Shown: piece by piece, positions 6,001-25,210 of the stretch
Numbering within the stretch: the stretch's first letter is position 1
How the letters are laid out: the number at the start of each line of letters is the position of its first letter
Assembly (NCBI GenBank): GCA_022709525.1
Contig: JAKLIQ010000001.1
Location: 274,679 to 338,678 of the forward strand
From: Candidatus Omnitrophota bacterium
Lineage (GTDB): Bacteria > Omnitrophota > Omnitrophia > Omnitrophales > Aquincolibacteriaceae
Reading direction: 5' to 3'
DNA length: 64,000 bases
Position numbers and translations under genes: made by a program
Notes under the pieces: generated by a model
The model's database searches: none
Seen by the model: only the letters and a program-made list of their open reading frames with translations
Told to the model about the DNA's origin: nothing

Positions 6001-7624
6001 GATCGAAGACGCTCTTCGCAACGAGATCGAAGCCAGGACCGGCATATGGATCGCGGACAGGAAGGGACTGCACTACGCCGCCCTGCAGACAGCCATCGGC
6101 ATTTTAAACGGCCTTGGCGTCGAACTTTCCAGTCCCCACATCGTTCAGATCCTGCAGATAAGGCGTTTGATCAAAAGCGTTGCTTCCCGTTATCCCGATC
6201 TTGATCTTTCCAGGGAAGGAAGCTCTGAATGGATCGCGGTATTCGCTTTGAAGAAAGGGATACCTTTTCCAGAACTCGAGGAAAAATACCTTAAACCCAT
6301 GCAGGAGTTGTACAAACCGGCCGAGAACGCTTATACCCCGTATGAGCTCGAATTAGCGGTGGAGCGGGTCCGGTCCATCAATCAAAGGGATATGGCCCTG
6401 ATCACCGAGACTTATGGCCTCAAAGATAAGGGCTATATCTCCGAACCCAAGACCGCCTCGAGGGACGTCCTTCTCAACACGATCTGGTACCACCTTCAAA
6501 GAAGCTACGACATCGGGGCCGATCCCGGCGATCTGCGGGATTTCTTCAAGATCCTCGGGGCCGTCAAAAGGTCCAATATGGAAGAACTTGTTCAGATCCG
6601 CGACATCGAGCACCTGGAGGAATGGCAGGGGAAGATGGACTCCATTTCCTATCAGCTGCTTCCCATTTATAAAAATCCGAAAGCACTGACCCGCGTCAAA
6701 TCGGGCGATGATTTCCTCTACCGGTTCCTCGCCAATTACCAACTTGTGCGCGAAGATAAGATCATTTCCGCGGAATTAAGAGAAACAACCGCCGCCGAAA
6801 AAGACGTTTCCGAATCCCTCCGGTTCCTCTGGCCCCTTTGGATGTCAATGGGCGATGTCTCGGCTTCCGTGATGCAGCGCATCACCTCGAAGATGGATGC
6901 GGCGGGGCAGATGTACCGCGAAATATTAGGCATAGAACCCGAGGCGGACTCCGCCGTCAAATTCAATGAAGCGGTCAACCTGCATCTTCTCGGAAAATAC
7001 GGCAAGTTCCTTGTCAATCAAAGGACCTTGTATCAGCGCTCGCAGACTTCCTGGTGGACCAACTACATGGTAAAGATCGCCTACAAAAGGCTTTTCGGCG
7101 AGCATTTGGAAGAAAGTACCAGGAAAGGCCGCCGGGTCCTGAAGAACATGCAGACCTGGTACAGCCGCGTCAAATTGCGCGATCCCCACAGGATCGTGCT
7201 GCAGGAAATGATGCAAGGTTTGGCGAACCACGGTTCCGTCAAAAGGATAGGTCTTTTCAGGCCGGTTTTCTCGGGCAAGGACGAATATCATAAAAGACTC
7301 GCGAGGTTCCGGGATTACATCCGCCACCTTGATGACGAGATCGTCGCGCTCAAAGAAGAAAAACGCTACACCGCCAATCTGGAAAAAATAAGGGCGGAGG
7401 TCCAAAAGGATCTTATCCGGCTTGAGAACGCCCCAGAGGAGCTCTCTCTTATGGCCGTAGAGGCCGAACGGCTCCTCGGGATATGCCAGAAGAGGCACAG
7501 CATTGATTCCACGTTCGTTACCGCGCTTATCTTCTCGGGCTTGTTCATTTATTATCTGCTGACCCGCCTTGTCTTTTTTGCCCGCAAGGCCGCTTTGGGC
7601 GTTCACCGCGCTCAACCCGCGTAG
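77..7624 (+). CDS. Giant (~2515 aa) multi-pass membrane protein of unknown function with an internal tandem duplication
   Basis: Single uninterrupted 7.5-kb ORF (GTG at 77, alternative ATG at 89). There are at least four hydrophobic helix clusters (aa ~300-350, ~800-880, ~975-1060, ~1190-1220). A ~100-aa duplicated segment is present (ELVDKFMEIYRKGNSIGYTSKPWWDKSGYLTLIYYKARF... / ELASEFMVFYRAGLASPYDRIPWWSVGGYLVLEYYKNKERR...). No catalytic motif recognised. Confidence 0.6.
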   Translation: MNLKMDSDNIKKYHKELSALSRALSGYLQELPRAGYLWPFFITRFLDKLGKLKQGKFRYATPSQHNFVMSDIMVKKAIGSIVCREMAGSSRQYRRKDRAIHQRLSGLYDEVQTCQAKDRAVDADILRRIRNLEKSRSFLQNRIQERKLRFQGELSEAFIAIFESETASLSPVKDLRDYETLLFRLTDAVRSNDQNAIKAGAQALAEKLQVPGELFSQSLAGRRIGNHELNLLGKFIKALENSKQYPDAVAALKEFSRYRKGKLFVAQLREVKGTRISDAFVKSKQAQCFEYLVKGQRLFFAAMVAFVPSLLVYGVDSIPYLPAVTLFWMVVCFGVTYYISWVPSHKISLFLMSVFADIPGHKKVRDVVSYIHTRYSEKDPLKIDYVIAKKSENDADAEIARFYFRKSIQALAPTLETFGKKLLLVFHLWSDTKEDKIIDYEIKMMQGLHGEFPQENLIFCYANRSKSEWFDNTKFGMAKAGGFAGKVGCIGNFLHFMNTGETKPRLFIDEGFEATQNRNVPLFCHFWSSDLVRAFGIQQGKERLDQEGILRKILGGEDVAIDPEKISEYCFMMDDKNELYPGELEKAIAIMAHPENSHIVIGQPHITITPPFHEGKAKESTFWKIMKGERDIENEINTKIVSGLYGKERAFFGKGFIRTKLYYERVFKNETLSPTKLRSHDWQESIFSRNCEGFFGAKRFIVKKILERPGTAVLRVELPDATSFIKIEKEEDGSVAVSHLDLFSGVYRFSRTFRHLEGLDMDETVKYVANFYGNAVFVGERDQLHFVTHIIRDERWLIGDFQALRTLIAYWKILTPYHQWHFSWAMGRILLDVGLFVFIMLMCLLWIFQFFFVLPTSSSAYYVTLVLAFFGIIVVHRFIDPMRYFVRRAHAEGRAVRPLAFTVEFVNQFFRSVMLTLETTMSALQLTIIKPLLTHLVYRAEKYNKVPEWKTSSTLSLMELEEKITPQEFKDIKIDEAQKAGLFITGIAATYVLTGIAPFAVLGIFGILPWAGSLMFGRYVIQAMGRVRDYRDIPVPFKQKVKSACIGLGVFLLALSAIGAVRNIPTENKPEIVKLLLPESRDRYSYSDSENRLLEKMRTDLEKIEFYIPEKVVKSKLTPLLKTREGKAEQLFEIEPLLERLTNAIPTLKPQKREVIAPPIKALPAPLEAPEISDPEAFQDFFKVAHKMGNQRFLLSVLLAGGKFFLSMEFFPAAIAILAIDRVEGLGMILKYFRKYPWFTLKDPLAAQFWFEASKLSGLSMKRIAKVFLWEETKKYWDCDFAHQRSVWKRYEYLQRGVLSLYYGGLEVNEENLRKFFTEYARMEEFHKRYPYVPLKPFRPIPESVMLLFKILGTGIFYVPIFDTAFLLDIPFGTVLSIVETIVTPYGGKLEYLITMAMKNNISVDEVMNRIGFDYINYAWKKTKIPGEMYKVNKERYLEDFRRKGVEKVACEKSNIKLICLISDYRMASEIWNALDKGAHPTNAQLLAISNQLHKDLKKIWKTLGKKYPALRDGFKAKGIGENLAARYYVIREKYGWGIDQFVDYLAPQLEEVRKLKEEDFQIDENIIHEIMFQNEIRQNQLYDDPRLLEFEHRDAIASLEKKVEKQSDAGKQMTGYLWLSALIADAKNNDIAATPQELVDKFMEIYRKGNSIGYTSKPWWDKSGYLTLIYYKARFQDVDSLFKYFKKEFDYSNAWHAEKMPLPEGFVDGAASSAFRDMGYTPEEVKMLVAETPEKLKADIAYEFLAELFLTAQYNGIQVKPRELASEFMVFYRAGLASPYDRIPWWSVGGYLVLEYYKNKERRGWKDMNDYFSFYAKTFAQINRWLTEDLALPPGFEYENAFRLQVIKRKLPSDPRVSAEENKGVLQVIEDNVQNETGLIKRYNAYMTLARIKEDYQLDFGRELDDAGVLKLAQTLMIFWKELPARYPQLPFFVPGIVEKLAIDSFAFSDPHEIEKTAHLAEINAFWDTPIPSSIEDALRNEIEARTGIWIADRKGLHYAALQTAIGILNGLGVELSSPHIVQILQIRRLIKSVASRYPDLDLSREGSSEWIAVFALKKGIPFPELEEKYLKPMQELYKPAENAYTPYELELAVERVRSINQRDMALITETYGLKDKGYISEPKTASRDVLLNTIWYHLQRSYDIGADPGDLRDFFKILGAVKRSNMEELVQIRDIEHLEEWQGKMDSISYQLLPIYKNPKALTRVKSGDDFLYRFLANYQLVREDKIISAELRETTAAEKDVSESLRFLWPLWMSMGDVSASVMQRITSKMDAAGQMYREILGIEPEADSAVKFNEAVNLHLLGKYGKFLVNQRTLYQRSQTSWWTNYMVKIAYKRLFGEHLEESTRKGRRVLKNMQTWYSRVKLRDPHRIVLQEMMQGLANHGSVKRIGLFRPVFSGKDEYHKRLARFRDYIRHLDDEIVALKEEKRYTANLEKIRAEVQKDLIRLENAPEELSLMAVEAERLLGICQKRHSIDSTFVTALIFSGLFIYYLLTRLVFFARKAALGVHRAQPA

Positions 7625-12744: not shown

Positions 12745-13045
12745 ACTGCCCGAACGCCACTCACAGACGACCTACTTTCCCCATTGAAATCCCGATCCTG
12801 CTTTACCGGGTGGCCAAGGGAGAGTGGAAGATCAAAAAAGTCGTTGATAAAACAACCGCTCTAAGGCGTGTTTACGATCCCATCAAATACAGGCCCAGAG
12901 TTGTCCGGGCGCCTTACCCGGGTCCCATGGGACATTCCAATTTTTACCAATGGTGTAGGCGGGAATTGTAGAGAGACATTTATAATAAAGGCCTGAAAAC
13001 AAGCTTCGCCCCAGGGCTTGGAACGGATAAACTCTATAGCAAGGC

Positions 13046-13076
13046 TTGACAATATCATATTCTGAATGCAGAATAT
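13046..13076 (+). promoter_or_regulatory. Candidate promoter/operator of the abiE pair: TTGACA -35-like hexamer followed by an 8-bp inverted repeat ATATTCTG-aatg-CAGAATAT
   Basis: TTGACA at 13046-13051 and a perfect 8-bp-arm palindrome at 13057-13076, ~20 nt upstream of the AbiEi start. AbiEi antitoxins are known to autorepress via inverted repeats in their promoter. Confidence 0.3.
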
Positions 13077-13094
13077 GTCCTGCGGAGACATAAA

Positions 13095-13928
13095 ATGACA
13101 TTAAAGTATAATGTTGCAAAAACCCTTGGTTCCAAGGCGGCCTTGCTGATTGCCGCACTCTACGAGGAGAAGCTCTCTATCTTCAGGTTAACGGATGTCC
13201 AAAGGATTTTGGCGATCAAAAAGCCGTCTGCCACAAATTTTGTTCGGAAACTCGTCAACAGGGGAATTGCATCAAGACTGAAGCCGGGGCTCTTTATCCT
13301 GGTTCCCTTTGAGTTGGGCAAAGAACGTGAATATTTGGGGGACCCCCTGATCGTCGCTCGTGAGATCGCCTGCGGCAAGGGATATTATTTTTCTCATGGC
13401 AGCGCGATGCAAATCCATCAAATGCTGACACAGCCCCAGTTACTTGTATACGCTTCGGTGCTCAAACCGCGGCGCCCGGTCCGCGTGCTCGGCGCTGAGT
13501 TCCAGTTCATCCACACGCCCAGGAAATACTTTTTTGGCGTCGCCGATCATTGGGCCACCAAAGAGACGCAAGTAAAAGTGAGCGATCTTGAGAAAACGGT
13601 GATCGACGGTCTGAGACAGCCTGAATATTGCGGAGGTTTGACCGAGGTCGCAAAAGGCCTTTGGATGAGGCATCAAGACATGAACCCCGCCCGCCTCATT
13701 GAATACGCAAAAAAAACCGGGGTCGGGGCCGTAGTACGCAGGTTGGGATATTTAATGGAACTTTACAAAATTGGAGCGGCCCAAGATCTGGAAGCACTGC
13801 AAAATACACTCACCGAAACTTATATGCGTTTGGATCCCCGCTTGCTGGCCGAGGGGAAATTCCTGCGTCGCTGGAGATTGCAGCTCAATGTTTCTCCGGA
13901 AGAACTCTTAGCCGTCGTGAGGACCTGA
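13095..13928 (+). CDS. AbiEi-like antitoxin/transcriptional regulator (type IV TA / abortive infection)
   Basis: 277 aa. The N-terminal wHTH-like region and overall layout match COG5340/AbiEi-family proteins. Its stop lies 3 nt before the AbiEii-like gene. Confidence 0.65.
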   Translation: MTLKYNVAKTLGSKAALLIAALYEEKLSIFRLTDVQRILAIKKPSATNFVRKLVNRGIASRLKPGLFILVPFELGKEREYLGDPLIVAREIACGKGYYFSHGSAMQIHQMLTQPQLLVYASVLKPRRPVRVLGAEFQFIHTPRKYFFGVADHWATKETQVKVSDLEKTVIDGLRQPEYCGGLTEVAKGLWMRHQDMNPARLIEYAKKTGVGAVVRRLGYLMELYKIGAAQDLEALQNTLTETYMRLDPRLLAEGKFLRRWRLQLNVSPEELLAVVRT

Positions 13929-13931
13929 CCC

Positions 13932-14765
13932 GTGATTCCTCAACGCAATCTCTCTCTACTCTCCAATGAACTTGCCCGCAAAGGCGGACGCCGTATTCCG
14001 GAATCCGTGCTTGAACGCGATTATTGCCTTTCATGGTTTCTCGTAGGCTTATCTCAATGCAGTCTTCGCGAGATCCTTTTATTCAAAGGCGGGACCGCGA
14101 TCAAGAAATGCCACATCGCTGATTACCGTTTTTCCGAAGATCTCGATTTCACTTTTGCGAATGAAATCCCTTTTGAGAAGGTCCAGGAAGACCTTGAACA
14201 AGTGTTCCCTAAAATCGAACAGCAATCGGGCATTAAATTCAATTTCAGCCGGCTTGACCGGCACGCCCATCAAAACAGCCACACTTTTTTTCTGGGTTAC
14301 GAAGGCCCTTTGCCGGCCATGGCTCCCAAGGAAGTCAAAGTGGACATTACGATCCGTGAACGGGTTGTCTTTTCGCCGCAGGAAAAGCCGGTTCTCGCGG
14401 AATACGCCCAATATGAGGACATCCCGAAGAATTCCAAGGTGCGTGTGTACTCCCTCGATGAAATAGCCTCTGAAAAGGTTGTTGCCCTCTCAGACCGAGC
14501 GCGGAATGAACCGCGCGATCTTTACGACTTGTGGCATCTCACCTCAAATCAGCATGTCGATATTGCAGAGATCTTCGACGCCATCGGTGAAAAGCTGACG
14601 TTCCGCAAAAGAAGTTCGGACACTGTGGGAGAAGAATTTTCCAAAAAAGAGGCGCGGCTCAAAAAGCTTTGGAGCGAGCGGCTTTCGGCCCAGGTTTCCG
14701 TACTCCCGGAATTCGACGAGGTTTACCGGACCGTAAAACGGGAACTCCGGCAAGCCGGATTTTGA
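13932..14765 (+). CDS. AbiEii/AbiGii-family nucleotidyltransferase toxin
   Basis: LFKGGTAIKKCH..YRFSEDLDFTF: the hallmark N-terminal motifs of the DUF1814/AbiEii nucleotidyltransferase family. GTG start. Confidence 0.75.
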   Translation: MIPQRNLSLLSNELARKGGRRIPESVLERDYCLSWFLVGLSQCSLREILLFKGGTAIKKCHIADYRFSEDLDFTFANEIPFEKVQEDLEQVFPKIEQQSGIKFNFSRLDRHAHQNSHTFFLGYEGPLPAMAPKEVKVDITIRERVVFSPQEKPVLAEYAQYEDIPKNSKVRVYSLDEIASEKVVALSDRARNEPRDLYDLWHLTSNQHVDIAEIFDAIGEKLTFRKRSSDTVGEEFSKKEARLKKLWSERLSAQVSVLPEFDEVYRTVKRELRQAGF

Positions 14766-14847
14766 AAGACCCCAGGACATTACTCTCGAGATTCAATTTA
14801 CAGCCTCTCCGCCTATCTGATTTACTGTCCGATGCGCATTCAAACGG

Positions 14848-16563
14848 CTACGGCTGAGCCGGTTCTTTCGGCTTCAGGTCCTGGATAATGCCGAGGACGC
14901 GGGGATCGTGGCGCAGGATGTCGGCCTTGATCTTGAGGACACGGGCGCGCAGATTCAGCATGTCTTCGGGCTTAAACCTTTTTTGATAAGGATCATAGTC
15001 CGTTTTCTCCGGATCCTTCCCCGGAACATAGAAAAAACGCCGTTCAATGCATCGCTGGCTTTGCCCGCGGTCGTACCGCGCCATAAAACCCACGCTGACC
15101 CGGCCCCCGCCGATCTCCCATAGCAGCATATTGCTCGCCCTAGCGGTCTCCCTGTTCATCAGTGCTTCAAAATCCCGTTTTTCTACGAGCCGATTATTCC
15201 CCTCAAAGATCCCTTCGTAGAACCGCTTGTATTCCTCGCTTTTCCAAACACTCTCAGGAACACCCGGAAGAAAGAGAGCGCTCCCATCCCGGTTTTTCCG
15301 GTAAAAGGAGCTGAGCCTTGATGAAAAGATCCGGCAGCATTCCGGGGATAGACCTTCAAGATGCGGCTCGAGTGGATACTCTTCCGTAAATTCCTCAGGA
15401 AAGAACAGATAGATGACGGCCTTTTCATTGCAAGAAGAGTACTTCATCCGCCCGGCCATCTCGCAGAAAAGACGGGAAAGAAAATACCGCATGAACTCCG
15501 TGCCTTTGCTTTCCAGCTCGATCAAAAGATGCTTCCCGGAATCCAGGATGTCCTTGATGTCCAAAGGATATCCCTGCGTGACGGGATATTTTTCGAGTCG
15601 CAGGGTATTTCCCCATTTCGTGAGTTTTTTTGCCAACTCAACGCGCGCTTTCCGGAGAGAATCAAAGCGCCATAGGTATTCCCGCGTCAGATCGATCTCG
15701 TTAAGCGCTATGGCTCCGCGCTTGTCCTCTAAGAGCAGAAGGAGATCCTCCAGCGTGTAGGGTTTCCCGCTTTTTTCAAGAGACGTCATCAGCCGTTCCA
15801 GGATACCCGCTCCCGGGCCGTCCCAATCAAGCTTAAGGTGGTCTTTCAAAAAATCAATACTCCCTTTCCCGTAAAATGGCGAATAACTCGCGGAAAGATC
15901 CGGTTGTTTTAACGAGAAGTAAAAAAAGGCTTGCCCCGTTTCGGAACCTCTTTCCCTTAACACATACGTTACTTCCCGGAGAAGGTCCTTCTGAGTCTCG
16001 GAGGCGAGGATCAGGACCGAATGGCCGTATTTAACGTCAGCTTCCAGCGCCTTTTGTAACGTGGAACGGGCGTAAGCTCCCGGCGGACCCAATACCTGCA
16101 GTGGGAAGGCGGGATCAAAAAGAGAAACTGAGACAGGATCACCCGTGACAAGATCCAGGCCCAGGACATCCCGGCTTTTCTGCCGGTCCATGGCGGCCTT
16201 TGCCGCCCGTATTTTTTTCGATCTCCTTCCAAGGATCCATGTTGAAAGAGCCAAGCTGGCCGCAAAAGAATGGGTCCACACCCAGAGCATAAAGATACTG
16301 CACCCATACAAAAATCCGGACTCCCACATCCCCCAAAATTGCTCTCCAAGGAATGGCATGAAGGAAAACCCACGCCCCCCGTGCATGGCATAGTCGATAA
16401 AATCATACGTCCACAAAATGGCTATGATAAGAAACGGGGAATAGCCGGGGACCGGGCCCAAAAACTTTCGGAGCGGCCAGGCACAGAATCGGCCAAGCCA
16501 GCAAGTCCAACCCAAACAAAGCATGAAGAAAACCTCCCAAAAACCCGGATATTCGTCGTCCAT
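14848..16563 (-). CDS. VirD4/TraD-like type IV coupling protein homologue with apparently degenerate Walker A/B motifs
   Basis: N-terminal hydrophobic helices are followed by a domain with the T4CP spacing pattern. The P-loop position reads VLGPPGAYARST (not GxxGxGK[ST]). It is followed by GHSVLILASETQ (where T4CPs have hhhhDpKGE) and ...FFYFSLKQPDLSASYSPF (where they have hhhhDP....NPL). A later hhhh-PEE stretch (IYLFFPEEF) sits at the Walker B DE position. The ATG at 16561-16563 overlaps the stop of the upstream gene by 1 nt (TGATG); the ORF track's longer start at 16656 is less likely. Confidence 0.45.
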   Translation of the reverse strand: MDDEYPGFWEVFFMLCLGWTCWLGRFCAWPLRKFLGPVPGYSPFLIIAILWTYDFIDYAMHGGRGFSFMPFLGEQFWGMWESGFLYGCSIFMLWVWTHSFAASLALSTWILGRRSKKIRAAKAAMDRQKSRDVLGLDLVTGDPVSVSLFDPAFPLQVLGPPGAYARSTLQKALEADVKYGHSVLILASETQKDLLREVTYVLRERGSETGQAFFYFSLKQPDLSASYSPFYGKGSIDFLKDHLKLDWDGPGAGILERLMTSLEKSGKPYTLEDLLLLLEDKRGAIALNEIDLTREYLWRFDSLRKARVELAKKLTKWGNTLRLEKYPVTQGYPLDIKDILDSGKHLLIELESKGTEFMRYFLSRLFCEMAGRMKYSSCNEKAVIYLFFPEEFTEEYPLEPHLEGLSPECCRIFSSRLSSFYRKNRDGSALFLPGVPESVWKSEEYKRFYEGIFEGNNRLVEKRDFEALMNRETARASNMLLWEIGGGRVSVGFMARYDRGQSQRCIERRFFYVPGKDPEKTDYDPYQKRFKPEDMLNLRARVLKIKADILRHDPRVLGIIQDLKPKEPAQP

Positions 16564-17318
16564 CAAAGCACCTCTTTTAAGGCGAAACTCCCGCGCCAGG
16601 TCCTCAGGACCGCCCGCTCCCCGAATTCCATGAGTTCCTTGTAGAGGACAAAGCACATGCGGTCAGCCCATCTTTCGCCCGCTTCTTTCATGACCTTTCC
16701 CCGGATGGAGGCATCCCCGCAAACATAGAAAATGTAACGTATCTTCGGATCGCGCTCATAGACCTCGAATATCTTCCGGTAGGTGTGTGCCTTCTTGACA
16801 TGCAGCTCCACTTCGATGGCGATCCCTTTGCCGTTCCTTCTAAATACGCCGTCCGGCACTTTCCGCTCTCCCTTCGTCCCAGCCCGTAATACTTTCTCGC
16901 TTTTCCAGTCTTTGCACATCCCGAGCCGCTCAAACAAGAACCTCACATCCGTCACTTTTTTGTCATGATCATAGAATGCGATCTCGATCGAATCCTGGGC
17001 ATCAGGAGCACCAAAGCCGCGAACGCCGACTATGCATCCGGCCTCTCTCAGAGCCTCTATACCCGCCTTACCTAAAAGATAGCTTTCAGGTTCGTCAGCT
17101 AAGGTTTTAACCGCTTTCAAATAGCCGAATTTTTTAAGCTTCCTGATCCGGATCTTGGCATAGCTTCTGGCTCCATCAAAGATGTTCTCGATCACATGAG
17201 GCCTTGTTAAAAACTTCTGTTCCACGATCATCTTCATCAGCCGGATATCCCTTTCCGTCACATCCAGATATTTCCAGTTCTGTTTCTTAGGTTCTCTCTT
17301 ACCAGGTGTAGCCTCCAT
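16563..17318 (-). CDS. Replication-relaxation family protein (plasmid/ICE-type wHTH protein)
   Basis: 251 aa; an N-terminal wHTH-like segment (LDVTERDIRLMKMIVEQKFLTRPHVIENIF...) and overall size match the replication-relaxation family, which is usually found beside coupling proteins on conjugative or mobilisable elements. Confidence 0.5.
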   Translation of the reverse strand: MEATPGKREPKKQNWKYLDVTERDIRLMKMIVEQKFLTRPHVIENIFDGARSYAKIRIRKLKKFGYLKAVKTLADEPESYLLGKAGIEALREAGCIVGVRGFGAPDAQDSIEIAFYDHDKKVTDVRFLFERLGMCKDWKSEKVLRAGTKGERKVPDGVFRRNGKGIAIEVELHVKKAHTYRKIFEVYERDPKIRYIFYVCGDASIRGKVMKEAGERWADRMCFVLYKELMEFGERAVLRTWRGSFALKEVL

Positions 17319-17348
17319 TTAATTATACCTCCGCCGATCAATCGTTTC

Positions 17349-17464
17349 TGTTTGCCCGCCACGATTCGACACCGAAGACCACACTCTCGCTCCCATAAGA
17401 GGAGAGAGTGTGGTCTTCGGTAACTGCTGCCAAAAGCAGTAGGGACGAAACGTGGCGGGCAAAC
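17349..17464. repeat. 116-bp nested inverted repeat (outer arms gtttgcccgccacgattcg/cgaaacgtggcgggcaaac; inner perfect 18-bp stem accgaagaccacactctc/gagagtgtggtcttcggt)
   Basis: Seen directly in the sequence. It lies in the 325-bp gap between the small ORF at 17644 and the replication-relaxation gene. It is a candidate oriT/nic region or a structured RNA. Confidence 0.6.
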
Positions 17465-17643
17465 GAGTTACGATGCTTTCGCCTCCACCTTGGTATATAC
17501 GCCCTGCGGAATACATACCAAAGTAGATCCGAAAGTGCAGGAAATCCCGAAAATCCAGATCATTTTCACCGGAGCTTTCATGGAATTTTTCAGGCCAGAA
17601 TTTGCGAGGGAATAGCCGCGAGTGTAGTGTTGCGGGGTTCATT

Positions 17644-17841
17644 TCAGGCGGTCTCTTTTGCCTTTTCCGGGGCCTGGCGGGCCGGGGCTTTCGGGTTTTT
17701 CAAAAGCCCGCGCTTCTCGGCAAGACGGAGCACGCCTTTGGCTAGAAGCTCGCAGGCTTGATCGAGCCTTTCTTCGTCGGAGAGATGGGCATAAACCCGG
17801 TAGACGGGACTTCTGAAGGTGTTCGGGGAAACCACTTTCAT
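17644..17841 (-). CDS. Small (65 aa) hypothetical protein translationally coupled to the upstream wHTH gene
   Basis: Its ATG overlaps the stop of the 17838-18308 ORF (ATGA). No recognisable motif. Confidence 0.35.
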   Translation of the reverse strand: MKVVSPNTFRSPVYRVYAHLSDEERLDQACELLAKGVLRLAEKRGLLKNPKAPARQAPEKAKETA

Positions 17842-18308
17842 TGCGGCTGCTTGTCCTCTACACCAAGAGCCGTGGGAAGGATCTGCTTGGCGCTTTCGGA
17901 AAGATAGAGAAGCTTGGGATTGCCGCGCTCAAGAAAACCAAATTCGATCAAAAGACGGATGCGCTGGAAACCGGCTTTGGCTTTCTTGGAACGGTTGTCC
18001 CAAAAACACCGGGAAAGATCCGCAGAGGTTTTCGCGCCCTCGACCTGCAAAAGCTGGAAGATCAAAAGATCGCGGGCTGTCAGTTGCACGGACCGGACTT
18101 TGGGGAACCTGCCGGGGATCCTATGGCTTTGGGATGTTGTTGGATTTTTTAAGCTTGCGGTTGCCTGTTGTAATGCCACTGCTTCAGTTGGTTCTTTGTG
18201 CATGGTGCATTCCGTTCCTTTCGGACCCTGGTAATCAAGCCTCCGGTGATGTGATGCCCCCTCATGGGACATGGAGTTAAGAGCTTGCCGTTCAACATTT
18301 ACGAACAT
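17838..18308 (-). CDS. Hypothetical wHTH-type DNA-binding protein
   Basis: The C-terminal half (LTARDLLIFQLLQVEGAKTSADLSRCFWDNRSKKAKAGFQRIRLLIEFGFLERG) looks like a winged helix. The true start is probably internal: M at 18272, or M at 18203 which is preceded by a GGAACGG RBS-like sequence. Confidence 0.4.
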   Translation of the reverse strand: MFVNVERQALNSMSHEGASHHRRLDYQGPKGTECTMHKEPTEAVALQQATASLKNPTTSQSHRIPGRFPKVRSVQLTARDLLIFQLLQVEGAKTSADLSRCFWDNRSKKAKAGFQRIRLLIEFGFLERGNPKLLYLSESAKQILPTALGVEDKQPQ

Positions 18309-18612
18309 TTCTAAGCTTGAAATAAATTTTCACGAACATCGATCAGATCCATTAAGCCCGCCGGAAAGACTCCGGATTCGCCGGAAACCAAAACATCAAT
18401 TCCCCCCAAACAAGCCTCTCATGGGAGGTCGAGTTACGACATGGACATTCACACCAAACGAACCTTTCTAAGCTAGAAATAAATTTTTCAGCGGTGTCGG
18501 CCGCGGGTGTTTTCGCTCCGTCGGCCTCCTTTCATCCCCTCATGGGAGGTCCGTTTAAGACAGGGGTGTGAACGTTTTGTGAAGGTTTTTAAGCTTGAAA
18601 CAAATTTTATCT
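18301..18612. repeat. Iteron-like direct repeats: three ~30-bp copies of acgaac(a/c)tttctaagct(t/a)gaaa(t/c)aaatttt and two ~20-bp copies of cc(t)ctcatgggaggtc(g/c)(a/t)tt
   Basis: A-type repeats at ~18301-18333, ~18458-18490 and ~18588-18612; B-type at ~18415-18435 and ~18537-18557. They lie in the 560-bp divergent intergenic region between the wHTH gene and the secreted calpain-like gene. Confidence 0.6.
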
Positions 18613-18984
18613 CAAGGTACCGACCACCCGGGTAAGAGCCCTGGAATGGTTAAGCTCATTGAAGGGTTAAAAACTTTGGGGATAAGGAAAAAGAAAACCG
18701 TCTTAAAGTTTTCTCGTCTTTTTTATGTTCGGTCTTCCAGGCGGATCCAGCCATTGCGGTGTGACGAAGAAATATTCGGAGAGGAGTAAGGGCCGAAAGA
18801 GCCCAGTATCGCTAGAACAAAAGATAGAAGAAACTATATTTCACTATAAACGCTAGTTTTTGCTATGAGGTATTTCGGGCAGGACTTCTTCAAAGGGTAT
18901 TTTAAGATGCTATTCTTTAGTCAGGATGAAGGAAGGTACCGTTGGAACAGCAATAAAGCGGAAGGTTACGCCAAACGGGTGAGA

Positions 18985-21900
18985 ATGATTATGCGAGACG
19001 CAAAGAAGGTGAATACGAAAAAGCTCATCGCTATTTTTACTGCCATCAGTTTGGCATTTTTGCAGGCCGCCCCGGTTGGAGTCGCGGCAAATACCCCTGC
19101 TGATCAGCTTGATGGTAGTGGAGTACATGTACCTGTCAAGTCTGCCACAGATGCACCATCGGAACCCTCGTCTGCGCAGGCGGTAATTCCTCCCAATTTT
19201 TTGATGGATACTGGCGGAATATCAAAAACCGAGGAAACGGAAATTCCGCAAAATGATGAAATCCAGGCGGTTAATCAAGCATTGGACAGTGATCAGCAAG
19301 ATGCTGTTAGTGAATTGGCCCAATATGCTCAAAACCTGACAGATTCAGCACAGCACACCCAATTTGAGGCAGCGTTATCGGAGGCTGCGCCGGATGCTCA
19401 ATACCGATACCGAATTGGTGCTAATGGCGATCAGAGCTGGTCGTGGACGAGCGCGGATGGTGAGACAACCTATACTTTGCATCAGGATCATCGCATGGTC
19501 CCGATCGGGATCGACGGGCAGATGGAAGAGGAAATTCTCTGGAGTTTTGAAGCTTTAAGCATTGTTATGAAAACAGAAGTAGAGCAATGCAGGAGCCAAC
19601 TTCCAGCCGATTCACTGGCCTACTTTGAGGAAGCGCTATCGCAAACAGATGATACAACTGTATTCTCAAGAACCACAATCGGGACGGATACCATTTATCA
19701 ATGGAACGACAAATCGGACGCATCAAAACTTTACACGATTTCTTTTCATCCTGGGCCCAGCGGGACTATCGAAGCGGCTTTCAGCGTTCAAATTGCGATG
19801 ATGCCTTGGGGACTAACGCATTTGGGGCCGATGTTAACAGATATGGCGCAAAGGACACAATTTGAAACAGCCATTTTAGATGTCGCTCCACTTACCCGTG
19901 ATAATTTTGAAACACTCCTTTTGAGAACGACAGATTCAATCGGACGAGTCACATCCTGGACCTGGACGAGCGCGGATGGGCAGACGACGTATGTTTTGCG
20001 CCAGGATCGACGCATAGTTCCTGTTGGAATTGATGGAGAGACGCACGAAGAGGTTCAGTGGAGTTTTGAAATAAAGAGTCAGATATCGGCGTCAGAGGTT
20101 CAGGAAAATATCAACCAAATTGCAAATGAATATGTTCGGGATCAGGCGCAGCAAGCTTTTGATCAATCCGTAGATAATGGGCAACAGACTTTTACAAAGA
20201 TTGTAAACGGTGGAGACATTATCTATCAATGGAATGATGTTATGGATGCATCGGTGGTCCAAACCCTTTTTTACGCACAAAGCCCAATGGGTGGTAACTG
20301 GTCTTTCAGTACGCAAACAGCTTTGGCACCTCAAGGTCTTTCACATCTTGCGGAGAACCTAACGGAAGTTGCTCAACGCGCCCAGTTTGAAACAGCGATC
20401 CTGGATGCCGCGCCATTGAGTCAGGATAATTGGCAGACGCTTCTTACGAGAATCACGGATACCAATGGTCGCGTTACCTCGTGGAGTTGGGTAAATGCTG
20501 ATGGAGGAACGACATATACCTTGCACGAAGATAAGACAACAGCTGGCGCTTCGACATGGAGTTTTGTCGCCGTAATCCAAGTTTCAACCGAGGAAACAAG
20601 GCAAGAGCTCATGTCGTGGGGGACAACTTCTCCTGAACACCTTCAAGTCTTTGAACAAGCGGTTCAACTTGGAGCTGTGTTTACTAAAACCATAAGCGGC
20701 GATCAAGTAAGCTATCAATGGAATTTGCCAATGAGCGGGCTGGCACAATATACCCAAAACCTGACGGATCCAGAACAGCGTACCCAGTTTGAAGCAGCCC
20801 TTTTGGCCGGCGGATACAGCACTCAGTCCTTCAATGGCGGCGGCTCTAATTCTTGGCGTTGGACAAGCGCGGACGGAAATACGGTTTATTTATTGGTTAA
20901 TAATAAATTTCAAGTGCCTATGCCGGACGGCAGCCAGTGGTTTATTGATGAATGGGGATTTTCAGCTGAAAACCAAGTGAGTGCTCAGGACATTAGGGAT
21001 CAGTTGCAAAATATCGGAACTCCCGAGGAACGCAATATGGCGGAGAATGCAATTGCTGACGGAGCGGTATTCAAAAAAATCACAATGGGCGCAACGGCTC
21101 AGTTCCAATGGGAAAGCGTTAGCGACCCAGAGCTTACTTATCAGCTTATGATTATTGACGATAGACTATCGTTTGCTACGATGTTTAATCAAGCTTCGGA
21201 CATTCAGTATGATGCTCAAGGCAATGTAATCAGTACTACATATCGAAACTATGACTGGGATTCCTTGCTTTGGCTGTATATGCCTTCATACGCTACAGTC
21301 TATCCCTCGCCCTCGACAATAAAATATTATGACTCGCAGGGAAATCTCCTTCGCGAATTAATATGGGGCGAATATGGAAACAGAACTCTAATTGTCTATG
21401 GTGACGCCTCCGTAATGGAGATTCCTGGAAAAGTCGAGGTCTATAGCTTTGATCAAAATCTTTATTCCACGCTTTATTATGATCAAAGGGGCTTCCTCAT
21501 ATCTTATGAAGTTTTACCCACTTTTATGAATCAGCTTCGGGCAGCTTTTCCGGCTTTTGAAGTTTCTTCACCGGTTTATATTTCAGGCAGCAACCCTTCT
21601 CTTTTTCAAATTACTATCACCAATCCATCGCCTGCTATGGGGGCATTAAATCAAATGAGTTTCCATGTGGATCAGGAGGGACAAATAGATTTTGATACGC
21701 TCGAAATCACCTATGAAGATACGGAATTTCAATGGTTTGGGGATCAGCTTCTTCTAGGACAAGTAAAAGATTTGCAGCCGAACGCCAATGATATTGAGAT
21801 CCTTACTCTAATATCTCAATTAACCATCGATTATGTCGACACGAACGGAACGATCCAGTTTACTTTGAATGGAACGCCTTACATGGCGGACGCAACGCTA

Positions 21901-23319
21901 TTTTCCATTATTGATACTTACTTGTACGACGATGCCGTGATAAATCGATCAGAAATGCTGTCGCTTTTTGATCGGGTTGAAGATGATGGCATTGTTTCTA
22001 ACGTTGAGTTTAACATTTTAAAAGCGATACAAAACAATCCTAATCATTATCCGGAGCTTGATTATGTGCGTAATCTCACGGATGCGGTAGTCTTTGGTTC
22101 CCTTGCCAATGCCACCTACCAGGGAACTCTGTTGGGGAATCTTTATGGCGGCTCGACTGCAGACCACCTAGAGAAACTGGTGAATAAATGGTTCTTAGGT
22201 TTGGATCATCCGCTTGTGACTACAGATTACTATGGTACTCCTATTTATCAGCAAGTTGCCGGCAATCTTTTTGTGGATGGTGTAAGCTATGCCGATATAT
22301 CACAAGGTGTTATCGGGGATTGTTATTTAATAGCTGCGCTGGGTGAAACGGCGCTTCGAACTCCGGACATTATTACCGATATGTTTATTGACAATGGTGA
22401 CGGCACCTACACGGTTCGATTTTTTAAGGATGGCATGGCCGAATATGTCACTGTTGATCGTCAGCTCCCGGTTCTTTCAGAATTTTTGATTTATGGCGGT
22501 TCGGCTGGTGGAACAACACATATGGCTGATCCCGATGCTGAATTATGGGTAGCGTTAGCTGAAAAGGCTTATGCCCAAATAAATGCAAAATGGAATTCTT
22601 ATGCAGAAAACTCTTATGATGACATCGGTAGAGGCGGGTATATTGATCGAGCCCTTCAAGCGATTACCGGTTTTGCAACTAATACATATGATCTTTTGAA
22701 TAACTTTACCTCAATAGTGTCATCTTGGGCAGCCGGCGGTCTCATAGGGTTGGCGTCGCGGTACGATGCCGTTTCCCCCGTAGTGAGCGGCCACGCGTAT
22801 ACACTGGTAGATTACGATGCGGTAACGCAACTATTTACGCTCTTGAATCCATGGGGGCTCGTCATGACTAATCTTTTGACATTGACTTGGAGTGAGCTTG
22901 AACGGAGCTTCGAAAATTTTTCTGTGGCAACTGGAAGTACAAATACCACGGCGGCAGAACTTGTTTCCAACCCTCAAACAGAAGGCCAGTCCACAACCGG
23001 TTCTGCAGAGGTCGCGTCCCAGAGAAATCCATCTTATGAATCAGTTGTTCAGCTTGAAGCTGCGCCAAATAAAGATGCCGCTGAAAATGTGTTGGATGTG
23101 GGTCTCGAAAAGGAAGAGCAAGAACGACCTGAGGTGGTAGAAAAAAGCACTAAACGCTTTAGAAATCGTTCCGAAAGGCGCTCCAGGGACAGCTATCAGA
23201 CCAGCACTGTTGAAGCGAAACACTTTTTTAGCGAACCGCTTTCCTATCAAAGCGTACTCGATGATTTTTTGTTTCAAAACTTTATCGCACACATGACCCA
23301 AAAGCGTCTCACGGGCTAA
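18985..23319 (+). CDS. Secreted ~1440-aa tandem-repeat protein with a C-terminal calpain-type (peptidase C2-like) cysteine protease domain
   Basis: The likely start MIMRDAKKVNTKKLIAIFTAISLAFLQAAPVGVAA is a signal peptide. The ATG at 18985 follows GGTGAG; the ORF track starts at 18865. Four ~170-aa repeats contain TQFE(A/T)A(L/I)L...W(S/T)WTSADG.TTY.L.QD.R.VP.GIDG..EE..WSFE. The C-terminal domain has QGVIGDCYLIAALG (calpain catalytic Cys), ~165 aa later SGHAYTLVDYD (His), and LLNPWG (Asn). The gene is visibly more AT-rich than its neighbours. Confidence 0.7.
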   Translation: MIMRDAKKVNTKKLIAIFTAISLAFLQAAPVGVAANTPADQLDGSGVHVPVKSATDAPSEPSSAQAVIPPNFLMDTGGISKTEETEIPQNDEIQAVNQALDSDQQDAVSELAQYAQNLTDSAQHTQFEAALSEAAPDAQYRYRIGANGDQSWSWTSADGETTYTLHQDHRMVPIGIDGQMEEEILWSFEALSIVMKTEVEQCRSQLPADSLAYFEEALSQTDDTTVFSRTTIGTDTIYQWNDKSDASKLYTISFHPGPSGTIEAAFSVQIAMMPWGLTHLGPMLTDMAQRTQFETAILDVAPLTRDNFETLLLRTTDSIGRVTSWTWTSADGQTTYVLRQDRRIVPVGIDGETHEEVQWSFEIKSQISASEVQENINQIANEYVRDQAQQAFDQSVDNGQQTFTKIVNGGDIIYQWNDVMDASVVQTLFYAQSPMGGNWSFSTQTALAPQGLSHLAENLTEVAQRAQFETAILDAAPLSQDNWQTLLTRITDTNGRVTSWSWVNADGGTTYTLHEDKTTAGASTWSFVAVIQVSTEETRQELMSWGTTSPEHLQVFEQAVQLGAVFTKTISGDQVSYQWNLPMSGLAQYTQNLTDPEQRTQFEAALLAGGYSTQSFNGGGSNSWRWTSADGNTVYLLVNNKFQVPMPDGSQWFIDEWGFSAENQVSAQDIRDQLQNIGTPEERNMAENAIADGAVFKKITMGATAQFQWESVSDPELTYQLMIIDDRLSFATMFNQASDIQYDAQGNVISTTYRNYDWDSLLWLYMPSYATVYPSPSTIKYYDSQGNLLRELIWGEYGNRTLIVYGDASVMEIPGKVEVYSFDQNLYSTLYYDQRGFLISYEVLPTFMNQLRAAFPAFEVSSPVYISGSNPSLFQITITNPSPAMGALNQMSFHVDQEGQIDFDTLEITYEDTEFQWFGDQLLLGQVKDLQPNANDIEILTLISQLTIDYVDTNGTIQFTLNGTPYMADATLFSIIDTYLYDDAVINRSEMLSLFDRVEDDGIVSNVEFNILKAIQNNPNHYPELDYVRNLTDAVVFGSLANATYQGTLLGNLYGGSTADHLEKLVNKWFLGLDHPLVTTDYYGTPIYQQVAGNLFVDGVSYADISQGVIGDCYLIAALGETALRTPDIITDMFIDNGDGTYTVRFFKDGMAEYVTVDRQLPVLSEFLIYGGSAGGTTHMADPDAELWVALAEKAYAQINAKWNSYAENSYDDIGRGGYIDRALQAITGFATNTYDLLNNFTSIVSSWAAGGLIGLASRYDAVSPVVSGHAYTLVDYDAVTQLFTLLNPWGLVMTNLLTLTWSELERSFENFSVATGSTNTTAAELVSNPQTEGQSTTGSAEVASQRNPSYESVVQLEAAPNKDAAENVLDVGLEKEEQERPEVVEKSTKRFRNRSERRSRDSYQTSTVEAKHFFSEPLSYQSVLDDFLFQNFIAHMTQKRLTG

Positions 23320-23451
23320 TGGTTTCCCTAGCGCTTCAAAATCTTTTGGCAAGACTGCGGTAAAGCAATTTTGACCCGCGGGTCGGAAGTTTTGCCTTTG
23401 GCCCGCTTTAAAATGTCTTTCTTTTTTTGCCTCGAACAGATAATATGCGCC

Positions 23452-25158
23452 ATGCACCCCGAACAGAAGAAAGACAGATTCGTTAATTGCGCCGTTTATA
23501 CCCGCGTATCCGTCGATGAGCGAGCCGCGACGCAAGCTTATTCCACGCTCGACAATCAACGGGATAGCTGTCTCTCCTATATCGAAAGTCAAAAGTCCGA
23601 GGGCTGGCGAGTCTTTAAAACCTATGAAGACTCCGGCCAGTCCGGCGGATCGCTTAACCGCCCCGCCATCAAGCAGTTGATCCATGACATCAAGAAAAAG
23701 CTCATCCAGGTTGTCGTTGTTTACAAGATCGACCGTCTCACGCGAAGCCACCGGGATTTTTATTCGCTTCTGGAAGTTCTGAACGAAAACGGCGTTACCT
23801 TCGTTTCCACCACCCAGCATTTTGAAACCAACTCCCCGGCGGGAAGGCTTTTATTGCACGTCATGCTTGAGTTCGCGCAATTCGAACGGGAAATGGCACA
23901 GGAGCGGACGTACGACAAACGCATCGCGATGGCTCGTAAAGGCATGTACTGCGGAGGAAGGGTGCCGCTTGGATACGACACAAAGAACAAGAAGCTTATC
24001 ATCAATCCCGAAGAGGCCAAGATCGTGCAGCTTTGTTTTGAGCTTTATCCTAAACTCGGGTCCATGGCAAGGGTCAGCCAGCGGTTGAACGAGCTGGGTT
24101 ATCGCACGAAAAAATTCTACGACAAAAGCAAAAAAAACACCGGAAGCAGAGGAAGCATCAAATTTGATAAAAAGAAAGTTTCGACGATCCTGGCCAATCC
24201 TCTGTATATCGGGAAGGTGCGTTTTGTAGATAAAAGCAAAAAAACCTATCTTTTTGATGGGGAGCACAAACCTATCATTAAAGATCTTAAGGTCTGGGAT
24301 GGGGTCCAGAACCTGCTCGTCAGTAACCGCGAAACCCGCAAGAGTTTTAAACAGAATAAATATGAAATGCTCTTTCAGGGTCTTGTCCGCTGCGGAGAAT
24401 GCGGAAGTACGATGAGCAATGCCTCCAAAAGAAAAAACGGGAAGGTTTATCTTTATTATCGCTGTATCGAGGCCATCGCGAAGGGCAAGGATTATTGCTC
24501 CATTCGTACTGTTTCCGGAGAAGCGCTTGAGGAGCTTCTTATTGCAGAATTTAAGGCCCTCGGCAAAAATCAGACGCTTCTCAGGAGATCCATTGAAAAG
24601 GCTAACGGTTTGGCCAAGAAGGGACTTGCGCCCTTGCAGAGGGAGAAAGACGCTGTGGAGGCCCAATTAACGAAAATAAACGGGGATTTAAAGCGGCTGG
24701 TAAATATCATGAAGTCCGAAGATATGCCTCAGAGAAGAGTTCAAACCCTTCTGAGCGAAATGTCGGACCTGGAAGCATCCAAGGAAAAGCTGGAATATGA
24801 GACCCACCGCATTAATACCAACATGCACCATCTTAGCCGGCACGTTATCGACGCGGAGACCTTCACCAAGCTTTTTGCGGAGTTCCCGGCAGTTTTCGAC
24901 ACCTTTGACTTTGAGGAAAGAAGGAAACTCATTGTTCTCTTGGTCAAAGAAGTGATTTATACTCCAACCAAGATCACCGTTAAATTCTGGGGGGATTTAC
25001 CAGAAATGGATTTTGACATTAAGCATCCGCCGGACTGGACACCGCCGCCGGATGACGATGGTGGAGAGGCTAGGGGTAGACCCGGAAATTCCGCCACACA
25101 ACCGGCGGGCAGGCAGGTTTGCTCAAGAGTGTCGAATGGCTGGGGAACTAGGATTTGA
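23452..25158 (+). CDS. Large serine recombinase (resolvase/invertase catalytic domain + recombinase + zinc-ribbon/coiled-coil regions)
   Basis: N-terminal CAVYTRVSVDE...QRD and VVVVYKIDRLTRS motifs of the serine-recombinase catalytic domain. A Cys-rich CGECGSTMS...YRC zinc-ribbon segment is present. The length (~570 aa) is typical of phage/ICE large serine integrases. The 3' end as called overlaps tRNA-Gln, so the true C-terminus is uncertain. Confidence 0.8.
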   Translation: MHPEQKKDRFVNCAVYTRVSVDERAATQAYSTLDNQRDSCLSYIESQKSEGWRVFKTYEDSGQSGGSLNRPAIKQLIHDIKKKLIQVVVVYKIDRLTRSHRDFYSLLEVLNENGVTFVSTTQHFETNSPAGRLLLHVMLEFAQFEREMAQERTYDKRIAMARKGMYCGGRVPLGYDTKNKKLIINPEEAKIVQLCFELYPKLGSMARVSQRLNELGYRTKKFYDKSKKNTGSRGSIKFDKKKVSTILANPLYIGKVRFVDKSKKTYLFDGEHKPIIKDLKVWDGVQNLLVSNRETRKSFKQNKYEMLFQGLVRCGECGSTMSNASKRKNGKVYLYYRCIEAIAKGKDYCSIRTVSGEALEELLIAEFKALGKNQTLLRRSIEKANGLAKKGLAPLQREKDAVEAQLTKINGDLKRLVNIMKSEDMPQRRVQTLLSEMSDLEASKEKLEYETHRINTNMHHLSRHVIDAETFTKLFAEFPAVFDTFDFEERRKLIVLLVKEVIYTPTKITVKFWGDLPEMDFDIKHPPDWTPPPDDDGGEARGRPGNSATQPAGRQVCSRVSNGWGTRI

Positions 25159-25210
25159 ACCTAGACTAGGTGATCCAGAGTCACCTGTGCTACCGTTACA
25201 CCATTCCCCA
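25137..25210 (-). tRNA. tRNA-Gln (anticodon CUG)
   Basis: The reverse complement folds as a cloverleaf: acceptor TGGGGAA/TTCCCCA, anticodon stem GGTGA/TCACC with loop CTCTGGA (anticodon CTG), T-arm CTAGG-TTCAAAT-CCTAG, discriminator G and an encoded CCA. Confidence 0.8.

Follow-up and report, generated by a model that had tools for sequence, protein, structure and literature searches.

The nucleotide-binding domain is the defining feature of the type IV coupling proteins (T4CPs) (PMC7431656). Mobilisable elements of the MOBC type typically bring their own VirD4-type coupling protein, as is the case for the MobB/MobC pair of CloDF13 and for the streptococcal integrative and mobilisable elements (IMEs) of IME_Class_8 (PMC7431656, PMC5357655, PMC12857230), and MobB of CloDF13 doubles as an accessory protein of the relaxosome (PMC7431656). 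The proteins of the Pfam family PF13814 are MOBC relaxases with a PD-(D/E)XK fold (PMC5357655, PMC12857230). The present analysis concerns a gene on the minus strand of a 64,000-nucleotide stretch (the window) from the assembly GCA_022709525.1 of a Candidatus Omnitrophota bacterium (contig JAKLIQ010000001.1, positions 274,679 to 338,678), which directly follows the gene of a MobC-like putative relaxase. Its product very probably descends from a T4CP, is dead as an ATPase and has been maintained by selection. The mobile elements of the uncultured phylum Omnitrophota have hardly been charted.

The homology to coupling proteins became apparent only after an exhaustive profile search and a profile-profile comparison with hhalign, as the direct sequence searches remained empty. 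The gathering scores of the Pfam T4CP models PF02534, PF10412 and PF12696 were not reached by the window protein, and seven other family members had no match at E <= 0.01. No match of the window protein was obtained in PHROGs and PADLOC at E <= 0.1 or among the PDB sequences at E <= 10, and the family profile searched against the PDB sequences found nothing. A word-indexed search yielded 12 relatives of 34-92 % identity, none of them with a Pfam domain and the named ones being proteins of Omnitrophota metagenome-assembled genomes; its repetition using the alignment returned the identical 12 proteins. The exhaustive profile search against 1.84 billion representatives retrieved 44 proteins, about 25 of which belong to the family and carry no Pfam domain, and its weaker matches (E 1e-6 to 1e-3) were canonical coupling proteins with the domains T4SS-DNA_transf, TraG-D_C and TrwB_AAD_bind. 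When 15 family members were compared with 10 canonical T4CPs, hhalign aligned residues 127-394 over 260 columns (probability 99.2 %, E 1.8e-19), including a near-identical block that reads AFFYFSLKQPDLSASYSPF in the window protein and FLYFSLTEPDLSNSYSPL in P0038, the nearest canonical T4CP. The SASYSPF motif is invariant among the full-length family members.

The AlphaFold (AF2) model of residues 120-571, built from 32 family sequences only, has a predicted local distance difference score (pLDDT) of 83.3 and a predicted template modelling score (pTM) of 0.83, and it keeps the strands of the RecA-like core. A first run (full length, 13 sequences) had been discarded owing to its pLDDT of 56 and its unreliability at residues 415-571. 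According to a Foldseek search against the PDB the best match is TrwB (E 3.5e-8, probability 1.0), followed by HerA, DotL, Cag-beta and VirB4, and the top 50 matches all fall within the same ATPase clade. The T4CP layout claimed in the first-pass annotation, a reading made from the letters alone, is thus borne out, solely by profile-profile and structural comparison, and the fold is T4CP/HerA-FtsK-like.

The three stretches read at that stage as degenerate nucleotide-binding motifs, GPPGAYARST, VLILASETQ and YLFFPEEF, are present and were aligned by hhalign to Walker A, the DxKGE block and Walker B, respectively (Table 1), and the comparison of 32 members revealed that these blocks are degenerate family-wide. 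The family reads LQVLG-(3-5 variable residues)-[AL]R at the Walker A position, in a loop that has neither a Lys nor a Gly-rich turn and is 2-3 residues shorter than the canonical one, so that the exact register within it is ambiguous; in the AF2 model just four loop residues separate the strand 155-158 from the helix 163-178. Few stretches vary as much among the 32 members as the former P-loop, which lacks GK[ST] in all of them, while its flanks are conserved. The DxKGE position is variable as well, reading hhhhAPEGE or, in the subclade of the window protein, ASETQ. Walker B corresponds to hYLhxPE, in which the Asp is replaced by Pro389 and Glu390 is kept, and both of these residues hardly vary among the 32 members. 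The sensor position reads RIFSx across the family; this correspondence was derived from a comparison of consensus sequences and not from hhalign, whose alignment stops at residue 394. Scanning of whole sequences for the pattern [AG]xxxxGK[ST] was positive in all 13 nearest canonical T4CPs and in none of the 33 family members, hence no canonical Walker A is located elsewhere in the protein either. The degenerate pattern recurs in 32 members that diverge to approximately 20 % identity.

Since the phosphate-binding loop, DxKGE, the Walker B Asp and the sensor Gln are all missing, a conventional ATPase is ruled out. The first-pass annotation had left the choice between a pseudo-ATPase and a decaying gene, and the former is supported by the loss of the ATP-site motifs throughout the family. 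The protein should not be filed as a functional T4CP because the defining catalytic features are absent. No naturally Walker-less T4CP clade is described in the literature searched, an absence that is in itself no proof. The ratio of nonsynonymous to synonymous substitutions (dN/dS, Nei-Gojobori) against three orthologues amounts to 0.30, 0.28 and 0.25, which indicates purifying selection; none of five regions reaches 0.51, the highest values (0.36-0.50) being those of the C-terminal region (residues 416-571).

The mechanical open reading frame (ORF) extends over 14848..16656 (-). Translation from the ATG at 16563 begins with MDDEYPGF, as it does in the orthologues, and the GTG start at 16656 (602 amino acids) was dropped because the orthologues all begin with MDDE and a Shine-Dalgarno-like AAGAGGTG is located 5' of the ATG. 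The TGATG overlap with the replication-relaxation gene noticed earlier was found as described: the A of the ATG is also the last base of the upstream TGA, and a stop/start overlap of 1 or 4 nt between the mobC-like and T4CP-like genes occurs in eight more loci. Hydrophobic segments at the N-terminus comprise residues ~4-35, 31-61 and 75-112, and the AF2 helices in this part span residues 8-35, 41-64 and 84-127. The Kyte-Doolittle maximum of 1.44 in the window protein lies under the classic threshold of 1.6 and homologues reach up to 2.6; the Wimley-White octanol energies of the segments are strongly favourable (-9 to -11.5 kcal/mol). The N-terminus is therefore likely to form a membrane anchor of two to three helices. 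The C-terminal residues 416-571 could not be aligned to T4CPs by hhalign.

Short forms of the family (~345 amino acids; P0022-P0037; L017/L018 8001-9044) contain the degenerate core and the C-terminal motifs, have neither the all-alpha domain nor a membrane anchor and are likewise accompanied by a MobC-like partner. Their neighbourhood in L017/L018 contains a region resembling a retron or a diversity-generating retroelement (RVT_1/bAvd) and MqsA-SocA and Fic cargo. On the metagenome contig L022 the mobC-like gene (2499-3251) and the T4CP-like match (6316-7593) lie ~3 kb apart, and the match starts at residue 142 with 94 % identity, which suggests an insertion disrupting the 5' part of the gene.

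Table 1. Features of the T4CP-like gene, its module and the adjacent cargo in the window.
Feature	Coordinates	Strand	Residues and basis
Conserved ~65-nt leader with small ORF	12746..12971	(+)	53 amino acids, AKGEWK...RRVY...VRAPYP; distal end of the cargo; blastn, alignment
AbiEi/AbiEii toxin-antitoxin (abortive infection) cargo	13095..14765	(+)	Convergent with the T4CP-like gene; Pfam; PADLOC E 1e-75, 3e-80
T4CP-derived pseudo-ATPase gene	14848..16563	(-)	571 amino acids plus stop; intact ORF and translation; 12 close and ~30 more distant relatives, all without a Pfam domain
Family-specific C-terminal region	14851..15318	(-)	Residues 416-571; beta-hairpin; conserved motifs YEPYQKRFKPEDML and IIxDLKPK
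RIFSS at the sensor position hhhh[ST]Q	15319..15333	(-)	Residues 411-415; Gln lost; AF2 strand 410-414
YLFFPEEF at the Walker B position	15388..15411	(-)	Residues 385-392; hhalign pairs PE with DE; AF2 beta-strand
All-alpha domain insertion	15535..15867	(-)	Residues ~233-343; AF2 helices; hhalign to the all-alpha-domain region of T4CPs
SASYSPF, retained T4CP signature (canonical SxTYNPF/SYSPL)	15874..15894	(-)	Residues 224-230; matches FLYFSLTEPDLSNSYSPL of P0038
VLILASETQ at the hhhhDxKG[DE] position	15991..16017	(-)	Residues 183-191; hhalign
Degenerate P-loop GPPGAYARST at the Walker A position GxxGxGK[ST]	16060..16089	(-)	Residues 159-168; hhalign to GxTGxGKT with a 3-residue deletion
N-terminal membrane anchor (likely)	16228..16563	(-)	Residues 1 to ~112; 2-3 hydrophobic helices; hydropathy of the window protein and 14 homologues
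MobC-type (Replic_Relax, PD-(D/E)XK-like) putative relaxase	16563..17318	(-)	Translationally coupled; Pfam PF13814
Conserved structured element, candidate origin of transfer	17350..17464	(-)	Inverted repeats I2, I3; between orf65 and mobC
Conserved 65-amino-acid ORF (orf65)	17644..17841	(-)	tblastn 51-89 % identity, same position in other loci
Conserved ~121-amino-acid ORF (orf121)	17838..18203	(-)	tblastn conservation; mechanical ORF reaches 18308
Three 73-nt direct repeats	18258-18330, 18415-18487, 18536-18608	.	Upstream of the operon; 68-75 % identity

The product of the upstream gene matches PF13814 with 28.3 bits (gathering score 25.3; E 2.2e-6) over the profile positions 2-173 of 191. 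The NCBIfam model MobC_subf (NF041423) is matched with an E-value of 1.8e-10, its 40.5 bits not reaching the cut-off of 200; the protein is a distant member that stands outside this subfamily. The active-site-like residues H118, D156, G157, E169, E171 and K175 are invariant in nine MobC-like homologues, one of which is linked to a type IV secretion system (T4SS). In ~19 distinct loci with upstream sequence, drawn from GTDB genomes, metagenomes and assemblies, the T4CP-like gene is always located directly 3' of the MobC-like gene, the stop codon of one overlapping the start codon of the other; the MobC-like gene in turn is preceded by homologues of the 65-amino-acid and ~121-amino-acid ORFs. 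The conserved order of the module is accordingly orf121, orf65, hairpin element, mobC and T4CP-like gene, with variable defence or toxin cargo beyond it.

A weak similarity between the orf121 product and the N-terminus of MobC (E 0.02) was obtained in a single pairwise comparison, and the product is possibly a winged-helix accessory protein. The three 73-nt repeats upstream of the operon, spaced by 157 and 121 nt and partly conserved in L001, L004 and L006, could represent operators, iterons or repeated promoters; each of them contains a TCCCATGAGGGG-like palindrome and a AAATTTATTTCAAGCTTAGAAA block. In one clade an HTH-S24 repressor gene is encoded divergently from the operon.

Between orf65 and mobC a structured element of ~110 nt was detected, which consists of an outer 7-bp stem, a small hairpin of 8 bp and a hairpin of 16-19 bp that is a perfect 18-bp hairpin in the window. 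The same element is present in eight other loci (L014 8113-8227, L002 8965-9080, L010 9088-9204, L012, L015, L017, L001 and L004). Across the nine loci 93.5 % of the cells are paired and compensatory changes affect 17 of the 34 pairs; none of 500 shuffles scored as high, and slid controls gave two to six compensatory pairs. No Rfam family matched at the element. Its position is the one expected for an origin of transfer (oriT), for which it is a candidate, as it is for a leader or a regulatory RNA.

The gene of the nearest canonical T4CP, P0038, is embedded in a full T4SS cluster (VirB4-like P-loop_TraG protein, CagX, Transposon_TraM), where it is preceded by an inverted repeat of 35 nt and by the gene of a 256-amino-acid MobC homologue (E 6e-12). 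A locus of the P0038 type is likely to represent the ancestral arrangement.

The AbiE cargo of the window is common to L001 and L006, and other cargo takes its place in L014 and L004; the cargo at further loci comprises SLFN_AlbA_2/HATPase_c_4, AAA_14-DUF4143, YhcG, Fic and MqsA-SocA genes. The close relatives of the module share 83-92 % DNA identity over 13038-18731 and have different flanking genes and swapped cargo. The differing chromosomal flanks together with the exchanged cargo suggest mobility.

Taken as a whole, we favour with moderate confidence the reading that the protein is a T4CP dead as an ATPase, which serves the mobilisation module of a small island as a receptor or adaptor at the membrane. 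On its own, the adaptor function in mobilisation is a tentative proposal that falls slightly short of an even chance; we infer the receptor or adaptor role, the identity of the hairpin as oriT and the dependence on a helper. In this scenario orf121, orf65, MobC and the T4CP-like protein would be expressed together from one operon, and MobC and the small proteins would assemble at the hairpin element as oriT. The pseudo-ATPase may then bind this relaxosome via its all-alpha and family-specific C-terminal parts and tether it to the membrane and to the conjugation machine of a helper. The energy would be provided by the ATPases of the helper, i.e. its T4CP and VirB4, which would allow the small island to be mobilised along with the defence or toxin genes that it carries.

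Several observations weigh against such a role. The window protein has no match at E <= 1 in Pfam, T4CP models included, or in NCBIfam, and the Foldseek TM-scores to TrwB are modest (0.31-0.40). Neither a VirB4-like gene nor a T4SS nor a canonical T4CP is located within 8-10 kb of any family member. An integrase is absent from the conserved ~6-kb block and is no regular part of the module, which by itself therefore does not account for excision and integration; an IME is recognised by defined att ends and by an integrase or excision module of its own, and neither was found. The Walker A lysine has proved indispensable for DNA transfer in all T4CPs tested, according to the variants TrwB K136T, TraD K198Q and TraJ delta-GKT (PMC7431656, PMC13463995), and since Walker A mutants are transfer-dead, a T4CP without this motif would need another motor. 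Finally, the defence or toxin-antitoxin-like cargo also fits a domesticated role without transfer.

The MobC-like protein could accordingly be a domesticated nuclease that forms, together with the ATPase-dead, membrane-bound relic of a T4CP, a defence or exclusion system without any mobilisation. The T4CP-like protein could in this case poison the coupling-protein hexamers of incoming conjugative elements as a decoy or dominant-negative T4CP, or be a membrane sensor directing the nuclease to incoming DNA. Consistent with this, the pair is found among the AbiE, SLFN_AlbA_2/HATPase_c_4, AAA_14-DUF4143, YhcG, Fic and MqsA-SocA genes, neither a T4SS nor a regular integrase is nearby, and ATPase-dead T4CP mutants are stable yet transfer-negative (PMC13463995). 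However, the PADLOC models match neither of the two proteins, the covarying hairpin occupies exactly the site of oriT in MOBC systems, and in a true T4SS locus a related inverted repeat is located 5' of the homologous gene. Taking furthermore into account that the different chromosomal contexts and the swapped cargo are typical of a mobile element, and that the S24/HTH repressor of one clade resembles the regulation of prophages or of integrative and conjugative elements, a pure defence function seems unlikely.

The name of the Pfam family, Replication-relaxation, and matches of the MobC-like protein to the PHROG families 'replication initiation protein' (E 2.9e-5) and 'replication initiation by nicking' (E 0.007) point to a role in replication or maintenance, in which Replic_Relax would be the nicking initiator of an excised circle, the T4CP-like protein a DNA-binding or membrane-tethering accessory of replication or segregation, and the three iteron-like 73-nt repeats upstream a matching element. 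Yet the characterised PF13814 proteins are MOBC relaxases (PMC12857230, PMC5357655), no replication role is known for descendants of T4CPs, and the recovered copies all reside on long chromosomal-looking contigs, none of which was recognised as a plasmid, their circularity being unassessed. We therefore regard this role as distinctly improbable.

An active NTPase with a non-canonical site, in which for example Arg166 replaces the P-loop lysine and Glu390 serves as catalytic base, is very unlikely. An Arg near the Lys position is common in the family, Glu390 is nearly invariant and the core strands are kept in the AF2 model, but the shortened loop has no glycines and varies freely, the Arg being Pro or Gln in some members; moreover, the Mg-coordinating Asp is a Pro in nearly all members, the sensor Gln is gone and the protein offers no alternative Walker A. 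The alternative of a decaying gene on its way to a pseudogene finds an echo in the loss of all catalytic motifs and in the missing Pfam match, but its probability is next to nil and the reading is refuted as far as sequence evidence goes, because intact full-length ORFs occur in more than 30 clusters (50 % identity), the dN/dS of 0.25-0.30 argues against decay, the non-catalytic motifs are invariant, and conservation extends to the Shine-Dalgarno sequence and to the translational coupling.

Going beyond the proposed adaptor, the module may belong to undescribed elements of 5-13 kb that are restricted to the Omnitrophota, lack integrase and T4SS, carry swappable cassettes with defence or toxin genes and possess, as their only transfer genes, those of a nuclease-type MOBC relaxase and an obligately ATPase-dead T4CP, a speculative idea that we hold to be doubtful. 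If it were true, the reception of the substrate by a coupling protein and its motor activity would be naturally separated, and the dead T4CP would be either an adaptor co-opting the T4CP hexamer or VirB4 of the helper or a decoy blocking foreign conjugation.

The leader and small ORF at the distal end of the cargo were detected by tblastn in at least eight loci, where they lie downstream of the cargo and are oriented towards the T4CP-like gene. The non-coding leader of ~65 nt is more conserved than the adjacent proteins, and its small ORF measures ~40-53 amino acids across the loci, which include L002 (12963-13146 and 14922-15090), L012 (13119-13293), L009, L010, L015 (two core copies) and L023-L031. 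In L002, and apparently in L015, two leader copies flank an AAA_14-DUF4143 cassette, which is missing in L012. The leader with its small ORF looks like a cassette boundary or the end of the element. As a second oriT-like site ('T-DNA border') it was rejected, since its local alignment was no better than that of shuffles (145-399 of 500 reaching at least the score). An inverted pair of 20 nt (12904-12923 / 18626-18645; 80 % complementary, core CTTACCCGGGT) near the ends of the shared block could be a terminal inverted repeat or due to chance.

A large serine recombinase with Resolvase, Recombinase and Zn_ribbon_recom domains is encoded at 23371-25158 (+), 6.8 kb from the T4CP-like gene, and the 3' end of its gene overlaps the 3' end of a tRNA-Gln(CTG) gene (25137-25210, -) by 22 nt. 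A serine recombinase is found near only 3 of ~25 loci. The tRNA-Gln gene was dismissed as attachment site because its end is not repeated directly at any other site of the window, where the best match is a nearby 13-mer. The gene at 18865-23319 (+) is divergent from the mob module and encodes a 1484-amino-acid protein, in which a cysteine protease domain of the calpain type (Peptidase_C2, E 1e-23) at the C-terminus is combined with repeated N-terminal segments of ~170 amino acids; the RHS repeat is matched weakly. Neither this gene nor the serine recombinase could be demonstrated as a part of the element, as they have no counterpart in the related loci. The GC content falls from ~0.52 to 0.44-0.47 between 18 and 28 kb, and the region with the serine recombinase and the low GC content could be an integrated island, either separate or composite. 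A giant ORF of 2515 amino acids (77-7624, +) has no Pfam domain at E <= 0.001. The remaining window is ordinary chromosome (glutaminyl-tRNA synthetase, FeFe hydrogenases, HydEFG, PGM, ribosomal protein S1).

The T4CP-like family would represent a natural separation-of-function variant, in which scaffold, anchor and relaxase partnership have been selected and the ATP-site residues have been lost. It could reveal which activities of T4CPs (relaxosome reception, membrane docking, T4SS contact) need no ATP, and how small 'hitcher' islands parasitise the conjugation machines of helpers. The compact module of hairpin, mobC and T4CP-like gene can furthermore be used to find defence-carrying mobile islands in the Omnitrophota, the T4CP-like protein being missed entirely by the present Pfam, NCBIfam and PADLOC models.

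The window protein shares with the VirD4/TrwB/TraD coupling proteins (PF02534, PF10412, PF12696) the N-terminal membrane anchor, the RecA-like core into which an all-alpha domain is inserted, the block FxxFSLxxPxxSxSYSPF and the order of the strands that carry the Walker A, Walker B and sensor positions, and its gene likewise adjoins a relaxase gene; it differs from them in the ATP-site residues and in the C-terminal third (416-571), and its family lacks a Pfam match and a nearby T4SS. The type VII secretion proteins EssC/EccC contain degenerate FtsK/SpoIIIE-like ATPase domains of the HerA/FtsK superfamily, which are thought to be substrate receptors or regulators. These degenerate domains are fused to an active ATPase domain, whereas the window protein is wholly degenerate and belongs to the T4CP branch. 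Similar to CloDF13 and the MOBC1 plasmids, the locus encodes an own membrane T4CP beside a MOBC relaxase of ~250 amino acids, MobB having been compared by its description. In contrast to CloDF13, the window element is chromosomal, belongs to the Omnitrophota and has the order relaxase -> coupling protein; MobB is treated in the literature as a functional T4CP that replaces the one of the helper, whereas the window protein is devoid of nucleotide-binding motifs. The streptococcal IME_Class_8 (PMC5357655) likewise combines a PF13814 relaxase and a VirD4-family coupling protein in a compact integrated element, but it has a serine integrase and a coupling protein described as canonical, and a serine recombinase is no conserved partner of the window module. 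In terms of fold, partner and neighbourhood, the pair is thus the known one of a T4CP and a MOBC relaxase for mobilisation, from which it is set apart by the absence of the catalytic motifs.

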